From positions 36,191 to 100,190 of the forward strand of contig WJIL01000006.1 in assembly GCA_014730275.1 (NCBI GenBank): a stretch of 64,000 bases of DNA, written 5' to 3'. The notes under the pieces are model-generated. The model had not been told where the DNA came from and ran no database searches. It saw nothing but the letters and a program-made list of their open reading frames with translations. Origin of the DNA: Promethearchaeota archaeon (GTDB lineage Archaea > Asgardarchaeota > Thorarchaeia > Thorarchaeales > Thorarchaeaceae). A program made the position numbers and the translations under genes. This document shows, piece by piece, positions 15,058 through 63,058 of this stretch. Positions within the stretch are counted from its first letter, which is position 1. Each line of letters begins with the position of its first letter.

Positions 15058-15411
15058 ATGTCAGATGATGAATTTCCAAATCTAAAGACCAGTGAAGAAA
15101 TAATCAGAGAAGACTCCGCAAAACATGTGATACATGGCGGAAATGTAAAACAGGGAGGCAGGCTAGTACTAACGAACCAGAGATTGCTATTTGGTCGAGA
15201 AAGCTCATTCTTGTTCTTTTTCTTCAAGAGCACGGATACTACCGTAGATGTACCTCTTGACCAAATCAGGAAGGTTGGTACTAAGGGTATGATTAGAAAA
15301 CAGCTGCAAGTTAGTCACGAAGACAAAGGCAATTATGAGAAAGACTTCTTCCAAGTTGGCGATGTCGATGAGTGGGTAGCTAAGTTGAAAGAGGTTTCAG
15401 ACGCTGAGTAG
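15058..15411 (+). CDS. Small PH/GRAM-like domain protein
   Basis: 'VIHGGNVKQGGRLVLTNQRLLFGRES' resembles the GRAM / bacterial-PH core motif (G-x-L-x-LT-x-x-RL-x-F); ATG with an upstream 'aggag'. Confidence 0.45.
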   Translation: MSDDEFPNLKTSEEIIREDSAKHVIHGGNVKQGGRLVLTNQRLLFGRESSFLFFFFKSTDTTVDVPLDQIRKVGTKGMIRKQLQVSHEDKGNYEKDFFQVGDVDEWVAKLKEVSDAE

Positions 15412-15566: not shown

Positions 15567-15986
15567 TCACTCATTTTCTTCAATAGAAACAAGCCGTTTC
15601 ATTTTCCGATAGAAGTACAAATCTAGGATGAACAGAAATGCACCCTGAATAATGACACCAATTCCATTTCCTGCAATGAATGGATCCTGCCCGAAGAACA
15701 GAAGAAGTATGACCCCGACTGCCTGATAACCCACATCTAATCCAACATTTATGAGAAGTATTTTCGCTAACTTTGATGCAGGGTCGTCTTGTTGTTTGAA
15801 AAGGGTGAACGATGCGATTACTACATCAATGAAACCCCACAACATAGCTTGGAGACCGATTCCTTGTAATAGCGATGTGGAGAACAGATAGAGTAACAAA
15901 CCAACAACCAAGCTGGAAAAAGCCCATGCAAGCAACGTCCTCCCAAGGGTCCGTGCCAGCTTCCTTTTTTCCGTCAACTCATTCAC
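15567..15986 (-). CDS. Small 4-TM membrane protein
   Basis: Hydrophobic helices throughout; no known motif. Confidence 0.4.
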   Translation of the reverse strand: MNELTEKRKLARTLGRTLLAWAFSSLVVGLLLYLFSTSLLQGIGLQAMLWGFIDVVIASFTLFKQQDDPASKLAKILLINVGLDVGYQAVGVILLLFFGQDPFIAGNGIGVIIQGAFLFILDLYFYRKMKRLVSIEENE

Positions 15987-17913: not shown

Positions 17914-19629
17914 TCAGTATATCTTAGGCGAGTCCCATTCCCCAAATACCTCTCTCCATACATCGCAGATTTCGCCTACTGATGCGTATGCACGGACAGC
18001 CTTGACAACCCAAGGCATGACATTTTCATCACCTTCGGATGCTTTCCTCAGCCCTTCCAAAGCCTCCTGAACCGCCTCTTCGTCTCGCTCTTCCCGGACT
18101 CGATTCAGTCGTTCAATCTGCCGTTTTTCAACTTCAGGATCAATCTTCAGCACAGGAATCTCGGGTTCTTTCTCAACCTTGAATTTGTTGACGCCAATAA
18201 TGGTTCGCTCGTTGTTTTCGATTTCCTTCTGATATCGATATGAGGATTTGGCGATTTCTTTCTGGAAGAAACCCTTCTTTATAGCGGGAACTACACCCCC
18301 CATAGCATCTATCTTATCGAAGTACTCATAGGCCTCCTCTTCCAACTCATCCGTTAGTGATTCAATGTAGTACGAACCAGCAAGAGGATCAATGGTGTTT
18401 GCAGCGCCACTCTCGTGTGCTAGTACCTGTTGGGTACGCAGAGCAACACGAACAGCGTCTTCTGAAGGAAGCGCCAAAGCTTCATCCATGCTATTGGTGT
18501 GCAGCGACTGAGTGCCACCAAGAACTGCAGCAAGTGCCTGATATGCAGTTCTAACGATGTTGACCATCGGTTGTTGTGCTGTGAGCGAACAGCCAGCTGT
18601 CTGAGTATGGAACCGCATCCAAAGAGAACGATTCTTCTCCGCACCAAAACGCTCTTTCATCTCGCGTGCCCAAATCCTCCTTGCAGCACGGTACTTGGCA
18701 ACCTCCTCGAATATATCATTGTGAGCATTGAAGAAGAATGACAAGCGCGGTGCAAAATCATCAACGTCCAGCCCTCTCTCGACACACCAATCCACGTACT
18801 CCAATCCATTTCTGAGCGTGAATGCAAGTTCCTGTGCTGCCGTTGACCCTGCTTCGCGAATGTGATACCCACTGATTGAGACCGTGTTCCATCGTGGAAT
18901 GTGTTCGGTGCAGTACTCAATGATATCGACGATAATTCGTAATGATGGCTCAGGTGCATAAATCTCTGAACGCTGAGCTTGAAATTCCTTAAGCAGGTCA
19001 TTCTGAATAGTTCCACCGATTTGGTCAGGAGGGACCCCTTGCTTCTCAGCGACGACCATATACATCGCAAGTAAAATGGAGGCGGGCGCATTGATGGTCA
19101 TGCTTGTGGTGACCTCATCAAGAGGAATTCCGTCGAATAATATTTCCATGTCCTTCAATGTGTCAACTGCTACACCGAGTTTGCCAACTTCACCGTGTGA
19201 CATAGGATGGTCGGAGTCCCGACCATAGATTGTTGGCAAATGGAAAGCAACACTCAGACCGGTTTGTCCATGCTTGAGCAAATACTTGAACCGCTGATTC
19301 GTTTCTTCAGCAGTACCCATGCCTGCAAACTGACGCATAGTCCAGAGTCTGCCCCGGTACATCGTAGGCTGAACTCCCCGTGTGAATGGATACTCGCTTG
19401 GAAATCCCAGGTCCTCGAGGTAGTCAAGATCTTGCGTATCCAGAGGCGTGTAGAGTCTCTTAACCGGCTTGCTAGAAGTGGTTACGAACTCGTCTTTGAT
19501 TTCAGGGTACTTATTCAAATGTGGTTCGAGGGTTTCTTTCTCCCACGTCTTTTTTGCCTTGGCTATGCGATTCGACTCTGGTTTGCTGCCTGCATATTCC
19601 TTCCTCGATTCTGCTTTTTCGGCACCCAT
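17914..19629 (-). CDS. mcmA: Methylmalonyl-CoA mutase large (catalytic, N-terminal TIM-barrel) subunit
   Basis: '[52 protein letters not shown]' and '[12 protein letters not shown]' are diagnostic MCM alpha motifs; no B12-binding domain is fused (archaeal split type). Confidence 0.85.
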
Positions 19630-19707: not shown

Positions 19708-20271
19708 TTAGAATTCGAACCCCTTTCTTGCCTTAACGCCTTCTTCCTCGAAGTAATGCTTTACCTCTTTCATCTCAGTAACTAAATCAGCTGCCTCAAT
19801 CACTTCTTCACGGGCATACCTTCCCGTCATGATCAGTTCCATATCATCGGGTTTAGTGCGTATAAGTTCCAGCTGATCCTCCAGACTGAATAAGTCCCAT
19901 TCCACGGCCACATTAATCTCATCAAGAATCAACACATCACAGGTATGGTCAGCAATCGCCTCTTGAGCCATTCGTAGCCCTTTCTGTGCAAGTTCGATAT
20001 CAACAGGGTCAGGATTCTCTTTGTCAACAAATGTTTCTCTGCCAACCGGGACGATAGCGAAATGGGGAATTTTCTGAACCGAAGCAAACTCTCCATAATT
20101 GATATCAACCTTGTCACCCCGCATGGCGACCTTTGCCTTCATGAAGGAAATCATCATCACACCAAGACCATGGCCTGCTGCACGCATACCAGCACCAAGA
20201 GCAGCTGTGGTTTTCCCTTTACCAGTTCCAGTATAAACTTGCACGAGACCTGGCCGAGGTTCATCACTCAT
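19708..20271 (-). CDS. cobA: ATP:cob(I)alamin adenosyltransferase (CobA/CobO/BtuR family)
   Basis: P-loop 'YTGTGKGKTTAALG' and the overall CobA signature; adjacent to the MCM gene. Confidence 0.8.
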   Translation of the reverse strand: MSDEPRPGLVQVYTGTGKGKTTAALGAGMRAAGHGLGVMMISFMKAKVAMRGDKVDINYGEFASVQKIPHFAIVPVGRETFVDKENPDPVDIELAQKGLRMAQEAIADHTCDVLILDEINVAVEWDLFSLEDQLELIRTKPDDMELIMTGRYAREEVIEAADLVTEMKEVKHYFEEEGVKARKGFEF

Positions 20272-20282
20272 TGGAGCCTCAC

Positions 20283-20915
20283 CTATTCATGCATTGTGTT
20301 GACAAGCTCAGCTACACGCTGGCCCAGTTTGATACTGCCCTGAATTGCAAGTTCATCATCCTTTGCGGAGCGCCATTTGCCATCGTCTGTTTGGAGACTC
20401 CCAGCGCCAAAGAAGCCATCTTTCACAGGATTGTCAACTGCTCCCACAACGATCATACCGTGACCGAGAGCAAACCGATTTAGATAGTCAACGATATGTT
20501 CCTGTCCGCCATATCGCAAGCCTGCGTATGATATTGCGCCAAAGATTTTGTCCTTCAGTTCGTTCCCATTCATCTTCATGGGTCTTGATCTGTCGATCAA
20601 ATCCTTCAAGACACCAGGAACAGCAGTGAAGTAAGAAGGAGCGGAAACAATGATTCCATCAGCCTTTCTTAGCCATTCTTCAATCTCTGGCATGTCGTCC
20701 TTTTCACTCTCGGGACAAGGTTTGCGACGAACACATGCATCACAGCCAGTGCAATGACGAATTTCATAGTCGCTCATCTTCAAGAGTACTGTGTTTCCTT
20801 CTTTGTTAGAACTACTAGATAATTCAGAAGAGGCGGCATCAAGTGCCTTCCTCAGGAGAAACTCAGTGTGCGACTTCTCAGTCTTAGGAGATCCACAAAT
20901 ACCAACTACTAGCAT
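20283..20915 (-). CDS. Iron-sulfur flavoprotein / NADPH-dependent FMN reductase-like
   Basis: Flavodoxin-like N-terminus 'MLVVGICGSPK', compact Cys cluster 'CTGCDACVRRKPC', 'GIIVSAPSYF' FMN-reductase motif. Confidence 0.65.
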   Translation of the reverse strand: MLVVGICGSPKTEKSHTEFLLRKALDAASSELSSSSNKEGNTVLLKMSDYEIRHCTGCDACVRRKPCPESEKDDMPEIEEWLRKADGIIVSAPSYFTAVPGVLKDLIDRSRPMKMNGNELKDKIFGAISYAGLRYGGQEHIVDYLNRFALGHGMIVVGAVDNPVKDGFFGAGSLQTDDGKWRSAKDDELAIQGSIKLGQRVAELVNTMHE

Positions 20916-20969
20916 AATCGACTCACGGTAGAATCGAAAAGGGGCATGGCATTTAGCCCTTTCCTCTTT

Positions 20970-21713
20970 TCAGGATGCACTAACGTCTTTCAAAGCTTGT
21001 GTGATTTCATCAACTGCATGAACAGCCTGCATTTTGCTCCCCCCTTTGTAGGGGGCAGCAACTACACTGAATGAGCCAACCTTAAAGAACTGTACATTGT
21101 ATTTATTTACGTTCAAAGATGTCGGCACCATGTCAGGATTTGGCTTGAATCCCGTGTTGATTATTTTATCTTGGATTCGAAGAGCATGAGATTTCGGAAC
21201 GTTGCCGTAAACCATTTTGCCCTTAGCATCAAAAACCCCAATATAGGCAACTTCATAGTTTTCTAAGGCTTCGTCTACAAAATCCCGAGTACAGCCAATC
21301 AATCTCTCGCTGGAAGTTTTTGAATTAACGAGAAGATATCTGTCAATAACACGATCTATCTCGTCCATCTGGGGGATTTCGCCGGAGAATTTGTCCAGAA
21401 CATCTTGATACGACTTTCGGATTGTTTTGCCAAGAGATACCAATCTCTGTTTTAATTGTGCTTTGTCATCTGGATTATGTGTTAGAGCCACAACAGCAAA
21501 TTCACTGAAAATGGCATAAGCCCAGAGTTTGTCATTTTCTTCCAGAAAGTAGGTACGCTGCTTTTCTACAGAATGAGATGAGGTAAGGAGCGTAACACCA
21601 GCAGTAACGCGACTAGGAAGTGATAAATCAAAACTGTTGCCTTCTTCTTTCAAGACCCGTGCATAGGCAAGTTCTCCATTGCTTCTGATAACATACGCGC
21701 TTGCGACTTTCAC
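20970..21713 (-). CDS. Tandem roadblock/LC7 (MglB/longin-like) domain protein
   Basis: Two ~110-aa halves, each with a roadblock-like pattern: 'ASAYVIRSNGELAYARV...KLWAYAIFSEFAVVALTHNPD' and 'EVAYIGVFDAKGKMVYGNVPK...VGSFSVVAAPYKGG'. GTG start preceded by 'aggggag' SD. Confidence 0.45.
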   Translation of the reverse strand: MKVASAYVIRSNGELAYARVLKEEGNSFDLSLPSRVTAGVTLLTSSHSVEKQRTYFLEENDKLWAYAIFSEFAVVALTHNPDDKAQLKQRLVSLGKTIRKSYQDVLDKFSGEIPQMDEIDRVIDRYLLVNSKTSSERLIGCTRDFVDEALENYEVAYIGVFDAKGKMVYGNVPKSHALRIQDKIINTGFKPNPDMVPTSLNVNKYNVQFFKVGSFSVVAAPYKGGSKMQAVHAVDEITQALKDVSAS

Positions 21714-21759
21714 CTTTGCTCCCCTGTCTCAAAAAGGTTCGAATTGCCTTTCTTAAGGA

Positions 21760-22119
21760 TTGTTTGTAGACATACCCTTTTTATGGCTACGAGAATACCC
21801 AAAACTGGGTGTTGATGTGCCACGACGGAAAGACCGCCCTCGTAGAACGCGGTATGACATATATGCGGAACTCATTCGTGTCATCTATATCTACGGCCAC
21901 TGCCCCCTTACTCGAGCGGCACGTTCATGCAATATGCCAGTTGATCGTGCAAAGGATAGCATCAACATGCTCTGTGATAGAGGTCTGCTAGAAGAAGAGG
22001 ACGATGACGGGCAGATTCTATACACAGTAACAGTGCGTGGCCACCAGTATTTGGAGCTTTACAAGCGTATGGCAAAGCTAGTGGGTATGCCAATGCCCGA
22101 TCCAATTATGGGAATGTAG
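21760..22119 (+). CDS. Small winged-helix DNA-binding protein
   Basis: 'DIYAELIRVIYIYGHCPLTRAARSCNMPVDRAKDSINMLCDRGLLEEEDDDGQILYTVTVRG' fits an H1-H2-H3-wing pattern; start (TTG 21760 or internal GTG) uncertain. Confidence 0.4.
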   Translation: MFVDIPFLWLREYPKLGVDVPRRKDRPRRTRYDIYAELIRVIYIYGHCPLTRAARSCNMPVDRAKDSINMLCDRGLLEEEDDDGQILYTVTVRGHQYLELYKRMAKLVGMPMPDPIMGM

Positions 22120-23006: not shown

Positions 23007-23106
23007 GGATGGTCACAATTTGTGACTACTGATTGTGACTTCGCTTTATATGTAGAGGATAGTGGATTATACATAGAAAATATGCATCAAAGGAGCAACG
23101 AAGAAC

Positions 23107-24339
23107 ATGAAATTCAAAGGTGAACAGGAACTCGTACTGGGTCTGGTTCGAGAAGACCTCGAGCTAAAAGACTGTAGATACGTAGTTCCTGAAGACGGGT
23201 CCCAAATCACTGTAGAGGGAGACATCAGAATCAAAGGCGAGACGTTCTTCAGAGGGAGTGTAAAAGCACAGAATCTGGAAGTAACTTCAAGCGACAAAGT
23301 GACAATCGAAGGTGATTTGGAAGTTGAAGGATCAGCCACCGCAAAGAAAGGCAGTATAGAAGTCAGGGGTTCCGCGAAAGGACAGATTTTCGAAGCCGGT
23401 GGTTCACTCACAATAGGCGAGAATCTCATTTGTGGAGGTGCCAAAGGTGGCGGCTCAATCAAAGTGGGCGGTAACGCAAAGGCACAGAGAATGAGTGCAG
23501 GTGGATCTCTGAGTATAAGCGGAGATGCTGTTGTTGACAGATTACGTGGAGGAGGCTCAATCAAAGTGGGCGGCCGAATCGAAACAGAAGAGCTTCATGT
23601 CGGTGGCAGCGGTAAATGCAATCATGGAAAAATCGGAAGAGTGAACATAGGCGGCAGTTTCAAGGCCGAAGGTTCTGTTGAAATCGACGAGATTGATGTT
23701 GGCGGCTCTGCCAAAGTCGGACCCAACTCCAAAGTAGCATCCGTTGATGTCGGAGGCTCATTCAAGGCAGCTGACAATTTCGAGTTCGGGGACATTGATG
23801 TTGGTGGTAGCGTAAAGATCAGTGGCAATGGCAAGGGCGGAGAAATTGATGTTGGCGGAACTGTGAAAGTATCTGGATCGCTTGAGCTGGAAAATGTAGA
23901 AGTGGGCGGGAAGCTCTCTGTAGATGACAACCTCAAAGCAAGTCGAAAGATCAAAGTCGGGGGAACGGTCTCTGTTGGCGGTAGAATCGACACATACCGT
24001 ATTCTCGCAGGCGGAAGAATTGAAGCCAAGTACATCTTCGCTGAAGACGGACTCAGAATCGGGCGCAAGGGTGAAGTCCGAGGTTTTGTAGAATCCAAGG
24101 AAATTTGGATTCGCGAACGTGCCAGGACAGATTCGCTCTACGGAGAAGATATTCGCGTCGAGGAAAGAGCAAGAGTAGCGAACATCTATGGAAAGGATGT
24201 TTACATTGAACGAGACGCAATAGTCGAGGGAAAGGTCCTCTACACAGACAGCCTCGAAAAAGAGAGCGATGTAACAATCAGAAAAGACACCAGAAAGGTG
24301 GATGAGCTTCCCCCACCAGAAGAATTGGCAAATAGTTAG
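23107..24339 (+). CDS. Bactofilin-like beta-helical repeat protein (extended)
   Basis: >15 repeats with 17-18-aa period of the form '(D/E)VGGSxKxxxxxxxxx(I/V)' (e.g. 'IDVGGSAKVGPNSKVASV','DVGGSFKAADNFEFGDI','DVGGSVKISGNGKGGEI'), matching the bactofilin (DUF583) triangular beta-helix winding length. 'aggag' SD before ATG. Confidence 0.5.
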   Translation: MKFKGEQELVLGLVREDLELKDCRYVVPEDGSQITVEGDIRIKGETFFRGSVKAQNLEVTSSDKVTIEGDLEVEGSATAKKGSIEVRGSAKGQIFEAGGSLTIGENLICGGAKGGGSIKVGGNAKAQRMSAGGSLSISGDAVVDRLRGGGSIKVGGRIETEELHVGGSGKCNHGKIGRVNIGGSFKAEGSVEIDEIDVGGSAKVGPNSKVASVDVGGSFKAADNFEFGDIDVGGSVKISGNGKGGEIDVGGTVKVSGSLELENVEVGGKLSVDDNLKASRKIKVGGTVSVGGRIDTYRILAGGRIEAKYIFAEDGLRIGRKGEVRGFVESKEIWIRERARTDSLYGEDIRVEERARVANIYGKDVYIERDAIVEGKVLYTDSLEKESDVTIRKDTRKVDELPPPEELANS

Positions 24340-24380
24340 ATTCACCAATGCGGTCGCTATTTGTAAGCAATAAAATAAGC

Positions 24381-26188: not shown

Positions 26189-27160
26189 ATGATGGACGTC
26201 ACAAAGGAAACCTTGGAAGATCTTTATACGCAGACTCTCAAAGTCAGGCTTTTCGAAGAAAAAGTATGGGAAGTATTCGGGCGCAATCTGATACCGGGCA
26301 CGCTTCATCTCTATCTTGGAGAAGAGGCAGTTGCTGCAGGTGTAAGTACAGCTCTGAGAGAGTCGGATTGGATTCAGAGTACCCATAGAGGGCATGGGCA
26401 CGTTGTCGCGAAAGGAGCGGATATGAAACGAGCTTTTGCCGAGTTGCTTGGAAAGAAGACGGGCTCATGCAAGGGGAAAGGTGGATCCATGCATATTACG
26501 GAGTTTGAGGCAGGTATTCTCGGCGCTACAGGCGTCGTGGCCTCAGGCCTACCAATAGCTGTTGGAGCAGCTCTTTCGGCACAGTTGCGAGGAACCGATG
26601 AAGTGGTAGCTTGTTTCTTTGGTGACGGAGCCTCAAACAACGGAACTTTCTGTGAGTCCCTCAATATGTCTGCGATATGGAAATTGCCTGTAATCTGGGT
26701 AGTTGAGAATAACTTTTACGCTATGGGGACACCAATCAAGCAGATGTGCCCAAGTCAGAGCATAGCAAGAAGAGGCGAAGCGTATTGTATCCCAAGTCAA
26801 GTTGTTGATGGCAATAATGCATTGAAGGTCTACAAAGCCGCAGCAGAAGCAGTAGAAAGAGCACGAAACGGCGAAGGTCCATCACTGATTGAGTGCCAGA
26901 CATACAGAAAGAAAGGCCATTCTCGCTTTGATCCCGCTGATTATCGACCAGAGGAAGAGGAAGAAGAATGGTTGAGCAGAGATCCTGTTGAAATAATCAC
27001 GAATCTTGCCATTGAGCAAAAAGCGTTGTCCAAGAAGAAAGCTGAGAACATCCGAAAACAGCTGCAAGAGCAAGTGGATGAAGCGGCTGAATTTGCAATC
27101 AATTCTGAACATCCTGAACCAGAAGAAGCTCTGGAAGATGTGTTTGCGGAGGTGGCCTAA
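26189..27160 (+). CDS. 2-oxoacid (pyruvate/acetoin) dehydrogenase E1 component alpha subunit, TPP-dependent
   Basis: 'LYLGEEAVAAGV', TPP-binding 'GDGASNNGTFCESLNMSAIWKLPVIWVVENNFYAMGT', phosphorylation-loop-like 'YRKKGHS'. Confidence 0.85.
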   Translation: MMDVTKETLEDLYTQTLKVRLFEEKVWEVFGRNLIPGTLHLYLGEEAVAAGVSTALRESDWIQSTHRGHGHVVAKGADMKRAFAELLGKKTGSCKGKGGSMHITEFEAGILGATGVVASGLPIAVGAALSAQLRGTDEVVACFFGDGASNNGTFCESLNMSAIWKLPVIWVVENNFYAMGTPIKQMCPSQSIARRGEAYCIPSQVVDGNNALKVYKAAAEAVERARNGEGPSLIECQTYRKKGHSRFDPADYRPEEEEEEWLSRDPVEIITNLAIEQKALSKKKAENIRKQLQEQVDEAAEFAINSEHPEPEEALEDVFAEVA

Positions 27161-28135
27161 TTGACGGAAATGACGTATCGAGAAGCCCTAAGAGAAGGTC
27201 TTAGAGAAGAATTACAGCGTGATGAACGCGTTTTCATGATGGGCGAAGATATTGGCAAAAACTGGGGTGGTGCATTCAAAGTAACCAAAGGTTTTGTCGA
27301 GGAATTTGGCGAAGAACGTATCAGAGACACACCAATTTCAGAGAACACAATTGCAGGAGCGGGTGTGGGTGCAGCAATAACGGGAATGCGCCCAGTTGCT
27401 GAGATAATGTTTGGTGATCTCATTACGCTGGCCATGGATCAAATCTGTAACCAGGCAGCAAAGATGCGATATATGTTCGGCGGACAAACATCTGTACCCC
27501 TTGTCTTGCGGACCGTATTTGGAGGGGGCAAAAATATTGCTTCCCACCACTCGCAGAGCCTACAAGCATGGTTCATGCATACACCAGGGCTCAAAGTAGC
27601 AGTACCTGCTTTCGCTTCGGATGTCAAAGGATTGATCAAGACAGCCATCCGTGATCCAGATCCAGTTATGTTTTTCGAGCATAAATTGGTCTATGACAAG
27701 AAGGAAGATGTACCAGATGACGAATACCTCATCCCCTTTGGGGAAGCGAAAATCCGTCGCGCAGGTGAGGATGTTACTGTCTGGGCCACGTTCAGAATGC
27801 TACATCAAGCCATAGAGGTAGCAGATGAGCTCGCCAAGGAAGGAATCAGTGTCGAAGTTATCGATCCAAGAACTCTAGTGCCGCTCGATAAGAAGACCCT
27901 CATTGATTCGGTTGTCAAAACGGGGAGGCTTGTTCTTGTTACTGAGGAAACCAAGACAGGAGCGACCACAGCAGAGATATCAGCATTGGTACAAGAGGAA
28001 GCTTTTGACTGGTTGGACGCCCCAATCAAACGGGTGAATGCACCCGATACACCAATACCTTTCAGTCCCACTTTAGAGGACTATTTCATACCTGACAAAA
28101 AGCAGATTTCCAACACAATCAAGAGTATCGTATAG
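27161..28135 (+). CDS. 2-oxoacid dehydrogenase E1 component beta subunit
   Basis: 'MTYREALREGLREEL...VFMMGEDIG' transketolase-pyrimidine-binding N-terminus and C-terminal transketolase domain; starts immediately after the E1alpha stop. Confidence 0.85.
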   Translation: MTEMTYREALREGLREELQRDERVFMMGEDIGKNWGGAFKVTKGFVEEFGEERIRDTPISENTIAGAGVGAAITGMRPVAEIMFGDLITLAMDQICNQAAKMRYMFGGQTSVPLVLRTVFGGGKNIASHHSQSLQAWFMHTPGLKVAVPAFASDVKGLIKTAIRDPDPVMFFEHKLVYDKKEDVPDDEYLIPFGEAKIRRAGEDVTVWATFRMLHQAIEVADELAKEGISVEVIDPRTLVPLDKKTLIDSVVKTGRLVLVTEETKTGATTAEISALVQEEAFDWLDAPIKRVNAPDTPIPFSPTLEDYFIPDKKQISNTIKSIV

Positions 28136-28151
28136 AATCTGAGGGAGCCCA

Positions 28152-29369
28152 ATGGTCGAGATTATGATAATGCAACGAATGAGCGTCGCAATGGAATATG
28201 GCGTGATTCTGGAGTGGCTAAAAGAAGAGGGTGAACACGTCGAAAAGGGCGAACCCGTTGTTGAAATCTTTGGTGAGAAAAATGAGTTCGAATTAGAATC
28301 GCCATACGAGGGTATACTTCTCAAACAGCTCTGTGAAGTGGATGATGAGATTCCAATCAGTGAACCTATAGCAATCATAGGCGAAGAGGACGAGGAAGTA
28401 CCTGATATCACACCCAAAAAGCTTGGAGAGATGGAAGAAGACCAGACTCCTGCTGCCGAAGACAAACGAACAGCTGTTGAGGTAGTCAAAGAAGCTGAAT
28501 CTACTGGGCAAACCGAAATCTCTAGGCTAAGAGGAGGGAGAGTCAAAGCATCTCCACGAGCAAGAAAGAAAGCCGAGGAGCTTGGTGTCAATATCAAAAT
28601 GGTTCGTGGTACAGGGCCGAGCGGTCGGATCGTAGAGGATGACGTGATAGAAGCATCAAAGGTACAGGTGGATTCTAGAGAAATAAAAGAAATAAAACCA
28701 ATGAGTCCATTGAGGCGGACAATAGCGCGAAGGATGACAGAAAGCTCAGAACGACCTCACATCACAATGATCACCGAGATTAACATGACAGAAGTTGTCA
28801 AACTCAGAAAAGAAATCAATACAAAAACTGAGAAAACTCATGCTTTGAGGATTTCGTTCAATGACATAATTGTAAAGGCTGTAGCAGACACCCTGGAGAA
28901 ATTCCCCCATTTCAATGCAACTCTTGAGGGTAACAACATCAAGATGTATGATGACATAAACATAGGAATAGCTATGGCAACAGATGAAGGTCTGATAGTT
29001 CCAACGGTGTTCTCAGCCAATAAAAAATCGATTACAGAAATAGCACAAGAAAGCCAAGGACTGAAAGAAAGAGCACAAGAAGGTGAATTGACTTCTGAAG
29101 AGCTTTCAGGCAGCACATTTACCGTCTCAAATCTAGGACCATTCCAAGTGGATCTTTTCATTCCACTCATTAACCCACCAGAAGCTGCGATTCTTGCTCT
29201 CGGGCAAATCAAAGAGAAGCCGGTGGCTGTTGACGGTATGATTGGTATTCGCCACATGATGATGGCTTCATGCGCAGTGGATCACAGAATCCTTGATGGT
29301 GCTCCTGCAGGAAAGTTCCTCCAAGTACTGAAGGAGTCTCTTGAGAATCCCTATTTCATGAAAATATAG
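28152..29369 (+). CDS. Dihydrolipoamide acyltransferase E2 (single lipoyl domain + E1/E3-binding + catalytic domain)
   Basis: Lipoyl domain 'VVEIFGEKNEFELESPYEGIL'; PSBD 'ASPRARKKAEELGVNIKMVRGTGPSGRIVEDDV'; catalytic 'DHRILDGAPAGKFL' (DHRxxDG). Confidence 0.8.
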   Translation: MVEIMIMQRMSVAMEYGVILEWLKEEGEHVEKGEPVVEIFGEKNEFELESPYEGILLKQLCEVDDEIPISEPIAIIGEEDEEVPDITPKKLGEMEEDQTPAAEDKRTAVEVVKEAESTGQTEISRLRGGRVKASPRARKKAEELGVNIKMVRGTGPSGRIVEDDVIEASKVQVDSREIKEIKPMSPLRRTIARRMTESSERPHITMITEINMTEVVKLRKEINTKTEKTHALRISFNDIIVKAVADTLEKFPHFNATLEGNNIKMYDDINIGIAMATDEGLIVPTVFSANKKSITEIAQESQGLKERAQEGELTSEELSGSTFTVSNLGPFQVDLFIPLINPPEAAILALGQIKEKPVAVDGMIGIRHMMMASCAVDHRILDGAPAGKFLQVLKESLENPYFMKI

Positions 29370-53816: not shown

Positions 53817-54848
53817 ATGCCGATTAGCGAAGATGCCGCAGAAACGTTGGAGCTGTTAGGATTCAAGACGGGGATAGATCATGATTCACGGGCGCTGAGT
53901 CTTCTGCGAGCCATGCTCAAGAAATGTGATGAGACAGGAAAACCAATATCATTCACCACTGCTTATGAAGCCCTACTAAGAGAAGAACCAAGTGCAAGCC
54001 CCTCAAAAGCATGGATTCACAAGGTGCTCAAATCTCTTGTTGATGATGGCCTCGTAACTATGTTCGGAGAGAGCGCACATCGCAAAAGCTATCTCGCAGA
54101 TGCCAAATCTGTGATGAACGGAATCGAAGTCCTTAGAGAGAAAGCTATTGAAAGAGTCTCAGAGACAATAGATAGAAAAAAGGAAGAGCTAGAAATCATA
54201 AGAAATCTGGATTCTGCAGCCCTTGCACAAGAAATCACAGAATGGATAACTGGAAGAAGACAGGCACTAAAGGCCAGATTCATCAAGGGAATTGACGAAT
54301 TTTACAGAGTCATTGACACAACGCTATACAAGAACCTGAAATCCGGAGACGTTCTAAGAATCTGCATATTGACAATCAATCCATTCATGCATAGATTTGA
54401 GAAAAGAATCAGCAAGATGGTTGATATAGCCAGAAAGGGCGTTGAGATAAAATATGCAGTTCCAGCAGGATTGCTAGAGAGAGAGTCTTTCAAAAACAAT
54501 CAAAACCTGAGAAATCTCATAAGAGAAGGTTTGGAAAATCTGATTACACTACAAGGGCAGGGTCACAAAATAGATGCTCGGTTTTTCAACGTCAGTAAGA
54601 AGCATTATCAATTTGTGGCAGCTAATCACGAAAGCATGGCACTCATCATCACAGAAAAACCAATCACCGGAGCATGGATGAGCCGCCGTTTCAACGCAGA
54701 TCTGGTAGACTCAGCTGTTGAATCCTTTGACAAGATTTGGAACAAGTCCAAGTCTGTACTTGACATCCGGTCTTCTGATATCGAATCTTCTGGAATGGAC
54801 ATAGACTCTGAGGTCGCAATGAGCTTCATAGAGGGAGGAAAGGAATAG
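53817..54848 (+). CDS. TrmB-like protein (N-terminal wHTH, coiled coil, C-terminal domain), paralog 1 of 3
   Basis: wHTH-like 'ALSLLRAMLKKCDETGKPISFTTAYEALLR...KAWIHKVLKSLVDDGLVTM'; coiled-coil 'IEVLREKAIERVSETIDRKKEELEIIRNL'; ~210-aa C-terminal domain. Confidence 0.5.
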   Translation: MPISEDAAETLELLGFKTGIDHDSRALSLLRAMLKKCDETGKPISFTTAYEALLREEPSASPSKAWIHKVLKSLVDDGLVTMFGESAHRKSYLADAKSVMNGIEVLREKAIERVSETIDRKKEELEIIRNLDSAALAQEITEWITGRRQALKARFIKGIDEFYRVIDTTLYKNLKSGDVLRICILTINPFMHRFEKRISKMVDIARKGVEIKYAVPAGLLERESFKNNQNLRNLIREGLENLITLQGQGHKIDARFFNVSKKHYQFVAANHESMALIITEKPITGAWMSRRFNADLVDSAVESFDKIWNKSKSVLDIRSSDIESSGMDIDSEVAMSFIEGGKE

Positions 54849-55762
54849 TGACTGTCTCGGGTACAAATCAGACTTCCCTGCTTCAGCTTTATGATGTGAA
54901 TCCACAGGAGAAGAGGATGCACGTCCTGAGAGCCCTGCTTGAAGCATGTGAAAATGAAATCAGAGTCGGTTTTTCGGACATTCTGAAACACCTCAGCGGC
55001 GAGGATACTGAGAAGCCCAATGAATCATTGATTTATCGTCTGCTAAGCTCCTTGGAAGACGAGGACTTCATTGAGGTTGATAGGAGCGGCTACAGACACA
55101 GATACTATACAGATTTGAATCGAATAGAGACAGCTCTAGAGAAAAAGAAGGGAAGTGCTCTTCAAACACTTTCTGAAGACAGAATTAAACTGAAACGAAA
55201 ACTTGAGCGGCTCAACAATATCAGAATAGGTCTACTGGTCGACAGAGTCATCAAGGTGATGACTGATTCTAAATGGGATGATAGATCGCGTTTTGGCATG
55301 GGTCTCAGAACCCTACAGCTCATGGCTGATCGAGAGGTATACGCACAGGTAACTCGAGGAGATATCGTACGGATTACAGTTGATGACGTGGATCTTCAAT
55401 CTCCACAGTGGAGCGAGCGCGTCGAAGTTTTTGGGAATCTAGCTTCAAGGGGCGTAAAAGTGAGAGTCCTTTTCACTTGGCCATGTAGACAGGTAAAGAA
55501 TGCGTGGAGAAATACGACGGAAGAGTATCTAAATCTCAAAAATCAAGGCCTAGATGTCGATTTTCGTATCCGGAGCGGAGACCTGACCTATCAGATGGTA
55601 ACAAGGAATGCCGAGGTCCTAGTATTGACTGTAGCAGAGGAACCATTGGCTTCCATATGCGTTCCTAGAAACGAGAATCCAACGTTATTAGATGATGTCG
55701 TAGACAGTTTTGATGCAGAATTCACGTCATCTTACAGTTTAGGTGAAGGTGATATCCGATGA
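54848..55762 (+). CDS. TrmB-like protein, paralog 2 of 3
   Basis: GTG start overlapping the upstream stop (taGTGa); 'MHVLRALLEACENEIRVGFSDILKHLSG...SLIYRLLSSLEDEDFIEVD' wHTH-like, coiled coil, C-terminal domain. Confidence 0.5.
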   Translation: MTVSGTNQTSLLQLYDVNPQEKRMHVLRALLEACENEIRVGFSDILKHLSGEDTEKPNESLIYRLLSSLEDEDFIEVDRSGYRHRYYTDLNRIETALEKKKGSALQTLSEDRIKLKRKLERLNNIRIGLLVDRVIKVMTDSKWDDRSRFGMGLRTLQLMADREVYAQVTRGDIVRITVDDVDLQSPQWSERVEVFGNLASRGVKVRVLFTWPCRQVKNAWRNTTEEYLNLKNQGLDVDFRIRSGDLTYQMVTRNAEVLVLTVAEEPLASICVPRNENPTLLDDVVDSFDAEFTSSYSLGEGDIR

Positions 55763-56730
55763 ACAACCGAATTCATGTTTCGGAACTGTCACTTTTTGAA
55801 CTCGATATGGCATCGCGCAAAATGGATGTTCTTGAAGCTGTTCTGAAGTCGGTGGAAGGAGACTCTGCTACAGCTGATTTTGAGGAGATATTCGAAATAG
55901 TAAACGCTGAAAAAAGTAACAACCTCTCCAAGAGTTGGATCTATAAATGCCTCGGGGAACTAGAACAAGAGGGGTTCGTAGTAGTTGATCGAATAAGTAC
56001 GCCGAACAAATACATGGCTACAAAAGAGACCATAGCAAAGGCATTAGAAAGCGCCAAAAAGGAACAAATGGTCAAGCTCCACGAGAAGATAAACCAAAAC
56101 AGGAAAAATGAACAAGTTATTCAGAATACAAGCATACACAAACTTGCAAGAGAACTTGCAGGAAAATCCGACAAAGAATCAAGGGATTACTCACACCTAA
56201 TCGAGGGTAGTGAAAACGTCAGAGGTTCATTGATTTCTGAGATACTGAATGCCGCAAATCAAGGTAGTGTTATTAGAATAGCTAACTCTTCGGTTTCTTT
56301 AACGAGCAATCTCGGTGAACGGGGGCCAGTAGAAGTACGAATGCTTGAACAAGCACTAAATGGAGTTGAAATGAGAGTTCTTTTTTCTAGAGAGAACACA
56401 AGAGCAAATGAACCAAAATCGATTTCCTCGTTCATGAATGATGCACTCCCGCTATTGGGAAAAGCGGTATCCTCAGGTCATTTGAAATTGAGAGCTATTG
56501 AGGAAGAGAGAGGCACATATCGCAGCGTAATCAAAGATGAGGAAAAAATGATTCTGTACTTATCTGATACATACAAAGCAGATGCAGCCTTTTTCATATC
56601 AGATGAAGATAATGAAACACTGATTCAGCATGCCATCAAGATATTCGATGAACGCTGGGGAAACGCCGTGGATATGACAGATATGTTGAGAACAACTCTT
56701 TCAAATATCAATTATGAACCTGCAGGCTAG
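55759..56730 (+). CDS. TrmB-like protein, paralog 3 of 3
   Basis: ATGA overlap with paralog 2; 'MDVLEAVLKSVEGDSATADFEEIFEIVNAEKSNNLSKSWIYKCLGELEQEGFVVVD' wHTH-like, coiled coil, C-terminal domain. Confidence 0.5.
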   Translation: MNNRIHVSELSLFELDMASRKMDVLEAVLKSVEGDSATADFEEIFEIVNAEKSNNLSKSWIYKCLGELEQEGFVVVDRISTPNKYMATKETIAKALESAKKEQMVKLHEKINQNRKNEQVIQNTSIHKLARELAGKSDKESRDYSHLIEGSENVRGSLISEILNAANQGSVIRIANSSVSLTSNLGERGPVEVRMLEQALNGVEMRVLFSRENTRANEPKSISSFMNDALPLLGKAVSSGHLKLRAIEEERGTYRSVIKDEEKMILYLSDTYKADAAFFISDEDNETLIQHAIKIFDERWGNAVDMTDMLRTTLSNINYEPAG

Positions 56731-60760: not shown

Positions 60761-63058
60761 CTAGAATTGATTGTCTTCTTTCTTCTGTTTAGCCATTTCT
60801 TGTGCATCCTCGTACATGAGATTCGCCAGAATGGTAAACATATCTGCGACTCCTTCTCCAGTCTTAGCACTGGTTTCCATGTAGAGGAATCCTTGGTCTT
60901 CAGCCCATTTCTTCGCTTCGTATGGATCGACCGCTCGATCAGGAAGATCTATCTTGTTTCCCACAACAAGAGCTGGGACTTTCCTTCCGATAGACTCGTA
61001 TGCCTCCTCCACCCAGTTTGGAAGCTCTGCGAAGGACCTTCGTCGAGTCACGTCATAAACCAGAATGACACCAGCCGCTCCACTATAGTACATCTTTCGT
61101 ACTGCTTGGAACCGGGCCTGTCCTGCTACATCCCACACTTGTAGTTTGAGACCAACTGCATGATCTTTCTCTTCGGGGTAGATATGGGTGAGTTTGACAG
61201 CGAATTGGCTACCAATCGTGGTCTTGTAATCTTTCTCGAAGCTTCCCGTTGTATACCGATTAACAAGTGCGGTCTTACCAACAGCACCGGGTCCCACAAT
61301 CATGCTCTTCATCAGATACTCATAAGCATCTTCGGATTTGCCAGGTGGAAGAGGTTTGGGTTCCCTATTTCGTATATCTGTTACTAATTCGCTCTCTACT
61401 TGCTCAGGTTCCTCAGGAGCTGGCGGTTCTTCTGGCTCAGTTACTGTCTCCGTCATTGCCTTCAAATCGTCGCCACTGGGTCCTACAGGCTCAGTCTCCC
61501 CGAAAATATCATCCAACATTTTGGAAGCTGCTTCAAGTTGCTGTTTCTCACTTTCAGTATACGCCGATTCTGTTTCAGCTTCAGGCTCCGTTGTCACACT
61601 ACCAAAACCTGTACCCTCCGACCTCACAGAAGAAGACGATTCAACAGGTGCTTCTTGAGGTTGAGAGGGGGTATCAAGGGTCACTTCAGGAGCAGATGCT
61701 GGAGAAGCCTTTGCTTCGCCTTCTTTTACTGAAATAGCTGTCTCAGGGGTCGTGACCTGTTTGACGTTTCCGGATTGATCAGTCCACATCAACACAATTG
61801 GGCGAATAACAACCGTTCCCTCTTCAAGTGGTCTTAAATGAACTTGAATGGATTTACATTCTTGGGAACCAAGATCGAAAGCCAACTCTTTGGGTTCTAC
61901 TTCCATGTTGTCTTTGGGAAACCAATAGATTTTGCCTTTGATTCCCGAGATTGATTTTTCGGTAGCATTGGTGACTGTTACTTCTCCTTTCAGCTCTTCA
62001 CCAGCAGCAGCTTCACGACTAACCTCAAAACGTGGAATTATCTCATAGAGACCTTCGAGGACCTTGAGAGGGCCGTTTGAAACTCCAACTAGGACCTCTT
62101 TGCGTTCATCTCCACCTGCGTCTCCTACACTTATGGAAAGAATCTTTCTTCCAATATCAGTCACAGCTAGCTGCTTCAATTCAGCCATGTACAGGCTATA
62201 GAAAACAATCTCTTGTGTGGCGTTGGCTACAATTATCTCGTCCATATGATCAGCATTTATCTCAGCCATCCGAATCGACAATGCGTCGACATGCTCGAGT
62301 TTGGAGAACATATCAAGCTGACTTTCTTCATTGCGATATATCCTGATAGAGCCATCATGAGTCACAACTCCGAGCTCCATCTTTCGGTCTCCAAGAATAT
62401 CACCTGCTGCTAATGAGATAACAGGGCTTGGGAGATCAAGCACCGCAATTTCATCGGCTGAATTTCCTCTAATCTTGAAAACACGCAATGTTTTGTCACG
62501 ATTACCAATGACTATCTCATCTATCTCATCGCCAATTACATCGCAGGTACCAATACAGAGAGGCATATCTTCGAGGGTGTAGCAAACGAGTTCTTCCAGG
62601 TGATTATCAGCACCCATCTTGAAAACTCTAAGAGTGGAATCACTTCCACCTGCTATGATTTCGTTCTTATCATCACCAGTAACATCAGTGACTTCCACAG
62701 TAGTTACGAAACGGCCAATAGGCTGTTCCGCGATAAGCTCAATTTGACCACTAGGAGCGTATCGATAAACTTGGAGTGTACCCGTTTCTCCGCCTGCACC
62801 ACTTACACTTCGACCAACAACGATTTCCATTTGTCCGTCATTGTTCGCATCTTCAACGCTTATTGAGAGGATGCTCCCTTGAACAGATACCTGAGCAAGG
62901 AAGTCTAGGTGATCTGTATCGGCTTTGTATAACCGGAGAATCCCGTCTCGTCCACCAGTGCAAATCTCCGGCCTCGTTGAGCCTGTCAGATCACCTGTAG
63001 CCGAGGCACTAGTGCTAGTATCGTCTTCCACTTCAAAGAGTATCTTAGGCGAATCCAA
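60761..63058 (-). CDS. Multidomain small GTPase: N-terminal FG-GAP-type beta-propeller + Ig-like domain + acidic S/T/P/E-rich linker + C-terminal Rab/Ras-like GTPase
   Basis: Six or more blades with 'D-x-(N/T/G)-G-D-x-x-x-E-(I/L)-(V/I)-x-G' FG-GAP-like motifs ('DANNDGQMEIVVG','DVTGDDKNEIIAG','DVIGDEIDEIVIG','DAGGDERKEVLVG'). GTPase G1 'GPGAVGKTALV', G2 'YKTTIG', G3 'WDVAGQARF', G4 'GNKIDL', G5 'ETSAKTG'. No C-terminal Cys for prenylation. TTG start. Confidence 0.8.
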   Translation of the reverse strand: MDSPKILFEVEDDTSTSASATGDLTGSTRPEICTGGRDGILRLYKADTDHLDFLAQVSVQGSILSISVEDANNDGQMEIVVGRSVSGAGGETGTLQVYRYAPSGQIELIAEQPIGRFVTTVEVTDVTGDDKNEIIAGGSDSTLRVFKMGADNHLEELVCYTLEDMPLCIGTCDVIGDEIDEIVIGNRDKTLRVFKIRGNSADEIAVLDLPSPVISLAAGDILGDRKMELGVVTHDGSIRIYRNEESQLDMFSKLEHVDALSIRMAEINADHMDEIIVANATQEIVFYSLYMAELKQLAVTDIGRKILSISVGDAGGDERKEVLVGVSNGPLKVLEGLYEIIPRFEVSREAAAGEELKGEVTVTNATEKSISGIKGKIYWFPKDNMEVEPKELAFDLGSQECKSIQVHLRPLEEGTVVIRPIVLMWTDQSGNVKQVTTPETAISVKEGEAKASPASAPEVTLDTPSQPQEAPVESSSSVRSEGTGFGSVTTEPEAETESAYTESEKQQLEAASKMLDDIFGETEPVGPSGDDLKAMTETVTEPEEPPAPEEPEQVESELVTDIRNREPKPLPPGKSEDAYEYLMKSMIVGPGAVGKTALVNRYTTGSFEKDYKTTIGSQFAVKLTHIYPEEKDHAVGLKLQVWDVAGQARFQAVRKMYYSGAAGVILVYDVTRRRSFAELPNWVEEAYESIGRKVPALVVGNKIDLPDRAVDPYEAKKWAEDQGFLYMETSAKTGEGVADMFTILANLMYEDAQEMAKQKKEDNQF

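Follow-up and report, generated by a model that had tools for sequence, protein, structure and literature searches.

Roadblock and longin domains are central to the argument that eukaryotic trafficking has its origin among the Asgard archaea, and they are read by default as regulators of small GTPases. The closest described systems are the stand-alone Roadblock/LC7 proteins of about 120 amino acids (MglB and MglC, together with the MglB-type Asgard structures PDB 9jq8, 9jue, 7yh1 and 7f8m), the longins (Sec22b, VAMP7, Ykt6, TRAPPC4 and the N-terminal domains of the AP sigma and mu subunits), and the tri-longin subunits of Rab guanine nucleotide exchange factors (RabGEFs), namely Mon1/Ccz1, Fuzzy/Inturned and the two chains of BLOC-3, HPS1/HPS4. 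Asgard roadblock, longin and combined proteins have already been solved, and lineage-specific architectures are many. On the metabolic side, the nearest functional neighbour is MeaB/MMAA, the G-protein known as gatekeeper of the delivery from adenosyltransferase to mutase. Here we describe gene X, an open reading frame (ORF) found in a 64-kb stretch of contig WJIL01000006.1 from a Promethearchaeota archaeon (hereafter, the window), the product of which is predicted to join one longin and one roadblock domain. It opens a conserved, co-oriented cluster composed of gene X, an optional TPR gene, and genes for a flavoprotein, a B12 adenosyltransferase and a mutase large subunit. In the window, the relevant features are as follows:

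20970..21713, minus strand: gene X, a predicted two-domain longin-roadblock protein of 247 amino acids, with a GTG start and a TGA stop
21719..21724, minus strand: Shine-Dalgarno-like GGGGAG, 5 nt upstream of the gene X GTG, read from the sequence
21330..21713, minus strand: predicted N-terminal domain, residues 1-128, beta-beta-alpha-beta-beta-beta-alpha-alpha, longin-type topology
20976..21320, minus strand: predicted C-terminal domain, residues 132-246, alpha-beta-beta-alpha-beta-beta-beta-alpha, full roadblock topology
20283..20915, minus strand: FMN_red-family flavoprotein (Pfam FMN_red, E=1e-25) with CX2CX2CX5C at residues 55-67
19708..20271, minus strand: CobA/BtuR-type ATP:cob(I)alamin adenosyltransferase (Pfam CobA_CobO_BtuR, E=1.6e-56; NCBIfam cobA models)
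17914..19629, minus strand: methylmalonyl-CoA-mutase-type acyl-CoA mutase large subunit (MM_CoA_mutase, E=3.5e-231, residues 50-563; NCBIfam acid_CoA_mut_N), lacking a B12-binding domain

Gene X is real, and its conservation goes far beyond chance. A protein identical to its product has been deposited from a Lokiarchaeota-labelled metagenome-assembled genome (MAG), and four relatives, 64-85% identical, are encoded on unlabelled metagenome contigs or in MAGs labelled as Thorarchaeota. When 1.84 billion representatives were searched exhaustively with a profile, the family comprised 31 clusters at E-values up to 1e-3, and in 26 the E-value was 1e-10 or lower. Such a search was needed to recover the wider family, as a word-indexed one yielded only 5 close relatives. 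Nearly all clusters are full length (~245 amino acids) and 28-35% identical to the window protein; members range from 237 to 274 amino acids, and those with names all come from Thor- or Lokiarchaeota-labelled Asgard MAGs. The preliminary description of this region, which was made from the DNA letters alone, had proposed a GTG-initiated frame with a Shine-Dalgarno sequence at exactly these coordinates, and the GTG start is now backed by the N-termini of 28 homologues in the alignment. The two hydrophobic strings that it had singled out, WAYAIFSEFAVVALT and VGSFSVVAAPYKGG, are indeed present as residues 64-78 and 212-225, and constitute the last strands of each half in the AlphaFold2 model.

We inspected the contigs of divergent family members, and scanned metagenomes with the adenosyltransferase alignment, which added loci L018 and L019; a scan of genome contigs gave one locus, already known. 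Ten lineages could be assessed: the window, P0003 (83% identity to the gene X protein), P0005 (64%), P0010 (35%), P0006 (34%), P0016 (33%), P0022 (32%), P0026 (28%), L018 and L019. In all ten, the adenosyltransferase gene is located no more than two genes downstream of gene X on the same strand, and is followed by the mutase gene. The flavoprotein gene comes after gene X in nine of the ten linked lineages, directly in seven of them and behind a gene for a TPR protein of ~240 amino acids in L018 and L019; at locus L016, a TPR protein takes its place. The TPR genes are homologous to each other and have no counterpart in the window:

L016, 6798..7475: TPR protein, about 230-250 amino acids
L018, 6557..7312: TPR protein, same size range
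L019, 3565..4257: TPR protein, same size range

The outer flanks vary between loci, and the rearrangements observed are all upstream of gene X: the winged-helix and bactofilin-like genes found on that side in the window are displaced in L007, and both are lacking in L010 and L019. Between gene X and the adenosyltransferase gene, nothing changes except that the TPR gene is inserted or stands in for the flavoprotein gene. Spacers between gene X and the next gene are mostly 33-59 bp long across loci; in the window, the same-strand spacers are 54 bp (gene X to flavoprotein), 11 bp (flavoprotein to adenosyltransferase) and 78 bp (adenosyltransferase to mutase). The adenosyltransferase is 67-93% identical across the gene X loci, indicating that gene X, at 28-35% identity, evolves much faster, and in the metagenome scan no gene X turned up beside an adenosyltransferase with less than 67% identity to that of the window.

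Enzymes of the CobA type depend on an electron donor for the reduction to Co(I), as is established for Salmonella CobA and flavodoxin, and the occurrence of a redox protein directly upstream of the adenosyltransferase, in clusters both with and without gene X, fits this requirement. The CX2CX2CX5C motif of the flavoprotein resembles the 4Fe-4S cluster motif of iron-sulfur flavoproteins, and the protein is a candidate electron donor that would act as a Co(II) to Co(I) reductase. An operon for 2-oxoacid dehydrogenase E1-alpha, E1-beta and E2 is located at 26189..29369 on the plus strand, at a distance of 4.5 kb from the cluster; L004 and L016 likewise have it close by, and it may supply branched acyl-CoA to the mutase.

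The next-closest adenosyltransferases, at most 59% identical to that of the window, belong to clusters without gene X. Eleven such loci, in which the mutase was included with at least 2.5 kb on both sides, served for comparison: a B12-binding small subunit is encoded beside the mutase in 11/11, and MeaB in 5/11. Neither gene was found in the flanks of the gene X loci (0/7), and the 64-kb window has no copy of either. For the small subunit, the difference has P=3e-5 by Fisher's test, a value that overstates independence, as the gene X loci form one clade. Upstream genes in some of the clusters without gene X code for an HdrA-like Fe-S/FAD oxidoreductase or for an acyl-CoA dehydrogenase. At least some of the nearest ones are probably bacterial, because relatives 89% identical to the L025 MeaB are named as Thermodesulfobacteriota, in a search that returned near-identical sequences only, with a bacterial name as the sole organism name. 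The nearest adenosyltransferase-mutase pairs outside the gene X clade (L022-L096, 56-59% identity) appear bacterial on this evidence, which hints at exchange of the adenosyltransferase-mutase module between domains of life. We also considered gene X as a stand-in for the missing B12-binding subunit and rejected it: its predicted fold does not resemble flavodoxin, a DxHxxG motif is lacking, and only 24 of 29 sequences have His176.

The fold of the gene X product was predicted with AlphaFold2. A first model based on 5 sequences was weak (predicted local distance difference test, pLDDT, 64) and was superseded by one built on a 29-sequence alignment, which reached a pLDDT of 86.4 with the same secondary structure; its predicted template modelling (pTM) score of 0.61 corresponds to only moderate confidence in the packing of the two domains against each other. 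The N-terminal domain is modelled with strands at residues 3-10 and 15-20, a helix at 34-45, strands at 53-59, 62-68 and 72-78, and helices at 81-108 and 117-127. By the topology definitions of Tran et al. 2024 (PMC10933270), a longin has no helix at the N-terminus and an additional one at the C-terminus, and both features are seen in the model of residues 1-128. Under the same definitions, the C-terminal domain is modelled as a complete roadblock fold, superposable on solved roadblock proteins. In the structural comparison table, the values are 12.0 for Prometheoarchaeum Roadblock2 (9jq8), 11.2 for MglC, 11.1 for Roadblock3 (9jue), 10.8 for MglB, 10.1 for the Sec22b longin and about 10 for profilins, with each alignment spanning about 90-120 residues, i.e. 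one domain, and with the half matched by each target assigned from topology. Longin matches include Sec22b and VAMP7; the earlier weak model had matched the same fold families, with longins first. Structural matches were thus found to all three folds, roadblock, longin and profilin-like, that the preliminary description had named. As a prediction, an architecture of longin plus roadblock, rather than a tandem of roadblock domains, is well supported. The roadblock/longin reading given in that description therefore stands with respect to fold (pLDDT 86.4; matches to MglB, MglC and Sec22b), but not with respect to a roadblock tandem, as the first half is predicted to be a longin.

With Foldseek, Mon1, Ccz1, Fuzzy, Inturned and both BLOC-3 chains matched best (E=4e-7 to 4e-5), over ~280 aligned columns, so that the two domains fall one after the other on successive domains of a tri-longin RabGEF subunit. 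Single-domain matches rank after these (Sec22b, TMt 0.66-0.71; MglB, ~0.6). The TM-scores of the tri-longin matches are only 0.29-0.36, with a root-mean-square deviation of about 11-12 Å, which shows that the inter-domain geometry of the model is unlike that of the tri-longin subunits.

At the sequence level, membership in known families could not be established. Neither the whole protein nor either half gave anything significant in Pfam, even at E≤10, or in NCBIfam. The Robl_LC7 (PF03259) and longin models, the application of which to each half had been suggested at the outset, yielded no significant match: for Robl_LC7, there was none at E≤10 for the whole protein or its halves, and a single one of 29 family members at E=0.095; among the longin models, a single one of 29 touched Fuz_longin_1 at E=0.0057, which is below significance for a claim about the family. 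Neither the single sequence nor the two profiles, when searched against PDB sequences, gave more than chance-level matches (DnaJC2, HPRT), and faint matches of the family to DUF5370, CHASE4 and FlaF in the Pfam and NCBIfam scans were dismissed as chance. The family hits had no enzymatic motif and no Pfam match. The two halves of ~110 amino acids proposed earlier are seen in the predicted structure but not by sequence, as BLASTP and alignment of half-profiles with hhalign (E=0.11) revealed no significant internal duplication, although the latter alignment is in register with the secondary structure. Homology to the Pfam Robl_LC7 and longin families is consequently not demonstrated.

Compared with the described systems, gene X differs in several respects. 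Unlike known Roadblock/LC7 proteins, it has no PF03259 match, and its predicted roadblock domain is fused behind a longin; nor does it have an MglA-like GTPase gene nearby. It lacks the SNARE, adaptor or TRAPP context of the longins. The likeness to tri-longin RabGEF subunits is limited to the serial alignment of its domains: it has two domains in 247 amino acids, against three in more than 380, with no sequence similarity, partner subunit or Rab context, and with no paralogue in the window. A Lokiarchaeota protein deposited as ‘Roadblock-Longin’ (8yqk, roadblock; 8yqg, longin) would have the reverse domain order, as judged from the depositors' name; it shows no detectable sequence relationship to gene X, and our literature search found no paper describing it. 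A search on tri-longin proteins in Asgard archaea returned nothing relevant. MeaB/MMAA is a functional neighbour and not a homologue: it is an accessory gene, for a non-catalytic partner, that occurs beside the adenosyltransferase and mutase genes in related clusters without gene X, and gene X holds a comparable place in Asgard clusters without a nearby MeaB, but gene X has neither a P-loop nor a match to the MeaB/ArgK GTPase domain (PF03308, for which true MeaB genes elsewhere score E=1e-90), and the predicted fold is entirely different.

In the family alignment, G95 and P173 are invariant, and P33, Y55, W64, F72, L150, G159, G165, G170, I180 and P197 nearly so. Polar conservation is concentrated in the roadblock half, which holds the motifs with the strongest conservation: D162-x2-G165 forms the hairpin between strands 1 and 2, G170-N-[VI]-P173-[ED]-x-H176 the start of the central helix, and D194-x-V-P197-T precedes strand 3. 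A D-x-x-G turn at the strand 1-2 hairpin is typical of roadblock domains. A conserved proline (P33, P173) caps the central helix of each domain, which would fit a surface made of both central helices. Longins of the GTPase-activating protein (GAP) type, i.e. the FLCN/SMCR8/NPRL2 class, are defined by a GP motif in the strand 1-2 loop and a conserved arginine finger (PMC12290439). In the gene X family, this loop has G13-[ED]14 with no proline; 21 of 29 sequences carry K or R at position 10, and no arginine is invariant.

Further features surround gene X, most of them on its upstream side, and to these we add a distant GTPase gene:

21747..21758, minus strand: TATA-like box CCTTAAGAAAGG / CCTTAAGA, about 35-45 nt upstream of the gene X start
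20950..20957, minus strand: A/T-rich box GCTAAATG in the 54-bp spacer between gene X and the flavoprotein gene, conserved in 5 lineages
21817..22119, plus strand: winged-helix protein (HTH_45 / Sso10a-like) of 100 amino acids (Pfam HTH_45, E=3.3e-8; NCBIfam Sso10a_fam below cut-off)
23107..24339, plus strand: bactofilin/FapA-like beta-solenoid protein of 410 amino acids, syntenic with the winged-helix gene and gene X in most relatives
60761..63058, minus strand: fusion protein of 765 amino acids, with an FG-GAP/BBS2/BBS7-like beta-propeller at residues about 20-280 and a C-terminal Ras/Roc-type small GTPase at residues 584-748

A CCTTA[AT]GA-like element is located at a similar distance upstream of gene X in 8 lineages. 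The box at 21747..21758 is thus a candidate archaeal promoter for gene X, and because it fits an archaeal TATA element, gene X may head a transcription unit. Scans for sigma-70 promoters and terminators are not meaningful for an archaeon, and an Rfam scan around the cluster revealed no cobalamin riboswitch or other RNA element. The winged-helix protein of about 100 amino acids that was originally noted to diverge from gene X proved to have 100 residues and an HTH_45 match; its ORF is listed from a TTG at 21760, while the internal GTG at 21817 is more plausible, giving the length annotated in a relative. The repeats of the bactofilin-like gene create long spurious antisense ORFs (23067..24348).

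We favour, with a probability of roughly 45%, a reading in which gene X encodes a non-catalytic longin-roadblock platform tied functionally to the supply of adenosylcobalamin to the mutase by way of reductase, adenosyltransferase and mutase. The product is probably soluble and non-catalytic; its operon membership, any physical partner and any GTPase involvement we infer from fold and neighbourhood. Its likeliest role would be that of a protein-protein interaction module in adenosylcobalamin supply or repair, and it could organise a hand-off from reductase to adenosyltransferase to mutase. Alternatively, by analogy with longin and roadblock domains elsewhere, it could dock or regulate a nucleotide-dependent chaperone such as MeaB, encoded elsewhere or absent. 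The sharper proposal that gene X is a dedicated loading or repair factor for adenosylcobalamin, which regulates MeaB or replaces its gating, together with the flavoprotein and in some lineages the TPR protein, appears unlikely. Several observations weigh against the link to B12. It is based on neighbourhood within one clade, so that shared ancestry inflates the counts, and the most distant family member, P0032 (18% identity), sits in an unrelated context. The winged-helix gene, divergently adjacent to gene X in 7 of 10 lineages, and the bactofilin-like gene (~7/10) are syntenic as well, and gene X could belong to that side. The conserved GCTAAATG box, about 35-45 nt before the start codon of the flavoprotein gene, suggests that transcription of the downstream genes may start from a promoter of their own, which leaves their co-transcription with gene X uncertain. 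A literature search found no longin or roadblock protein acting in the context of cobalamin or methylmalonyl-CoA mutase. Finally, MeaB is a SIMIBI-class GTPase, and the known clients of longin and roadblock proteins are Ras-, Arf- or Rag-like.

A more conventional role is conceivable, in which gene X would act as a GAP, exchange factor or scaffold for a Ras-, Arf- or Rag-like GTPase encoded elsewhere, with the B12 neighbourhood representing merely inherited gene order. The fold family is the classical small-GTPase platform, with MglB, MglC, Rag C-terminal domains, LAMTOR and Mon1/Ccz1 among the top matches, and in Asgard genomes the Roadblock superfamily accounts for about 130 orthologous groups and small GTPases for 94, mostly outside operons; a partner encoded elsewhere is common for such genes (bioRxiv 10.1101/2020.10.19.343400). 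The window does encode the propeller-Ras fusion, and at locus L010 a Ras-like gene occurs 5.6 kb downstream. The fusion, which had been put forward as the GTPase partner, is the only Ras-like ORF in the window, but at 39 kb from gene X and with a Ras-like gene in the flanks of just 1 of 10 gene X loci (L010), it finds no support in gene context; the initial interpretation is thus supported in part, for the fold. There is no conserved GTPase neighbour, and the linkage to the adenosyltransferase persists through divergence to 28% identity and several upstream rearrangements; we regard this role as less likely than the favoured one, if the likeliest of the alternatives. The conserved adjacency of the winged-helix gene, a candidate local regulator, brings to mind a sensor or co-regulator that would control transcription of the cluster jointly with the winged-helix protein, the profilin/longin-like fold serving to sense a small molecule or a protein, as in IclR or GAF-like effector domains; this we consider quite improbable. 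Least probable of all would be a cytoskeletal or polarity module with the bactofilin-like protein, as in the MglB-bactofilin case of Myxococcus, to which the downstream metabolic genes would be unrelated: a bactofilin/FapA-like gene (410 amino acids in the window) does occur within 1.5-3 kb of gene X in the window, L001, L004, L006, L007, L016 and L018, but it lies beyond the winged-helix gene, usually on the opposite strand and separated by genes that differ from locus to locus, is weak or absent in L010, L015 and L019, and is not accompanied by a GTPase.

While the result on the fold is solid, it comes as no surprise. What was not expected is that gene X is paired so consistently with genes for B12 adenosylation and mutase, at loci where the usual neighbours, MeaB and the small subunit, are missing. 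In the gene X family, the fold occurs in a fixed two-domain form that sequence models miss, and the neighbourhood points to B12 handling and not to membrane traffic. If the link is functional, it would add a new component to adenosyltransferase-to-mutase delivery, and annotation of Asgard ‘eukaryotic signature’ folds by analogy would need more caution. Were gene X in fact a loading or repair factor, it would be the first case of a GTPase-platform fold, otherwise devoted to traffic or polarity, being used in metabolic cofactor trafficking, and Mon1/Ccz1-like longin-roadblock chains would have existed in Asgard archaea in a non-trafficking role. If the link reflects only inherited gene order, gene X just adds another lineage-specific family to an Asgard superfamily that is already very large. 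The lead provided by context could be important, and rests so far on synteny in one clade.

Elsewhere in the window, three consecutive co-oriented ORFs of 343, 304 and 323 amino acids at 53817..56730 on the plus strand have no Pfam match at E≤1e-4. A protein of 117 amino acids encoded at 15058..15411 on the plus strand shows weak similarity to the bacterial PH model bPH_3 (E=8e-5) and to the Vps36 GLUE-like domain (E=1.2e-3), and is adjoined by a DUF6992 protein at 15567..15986.
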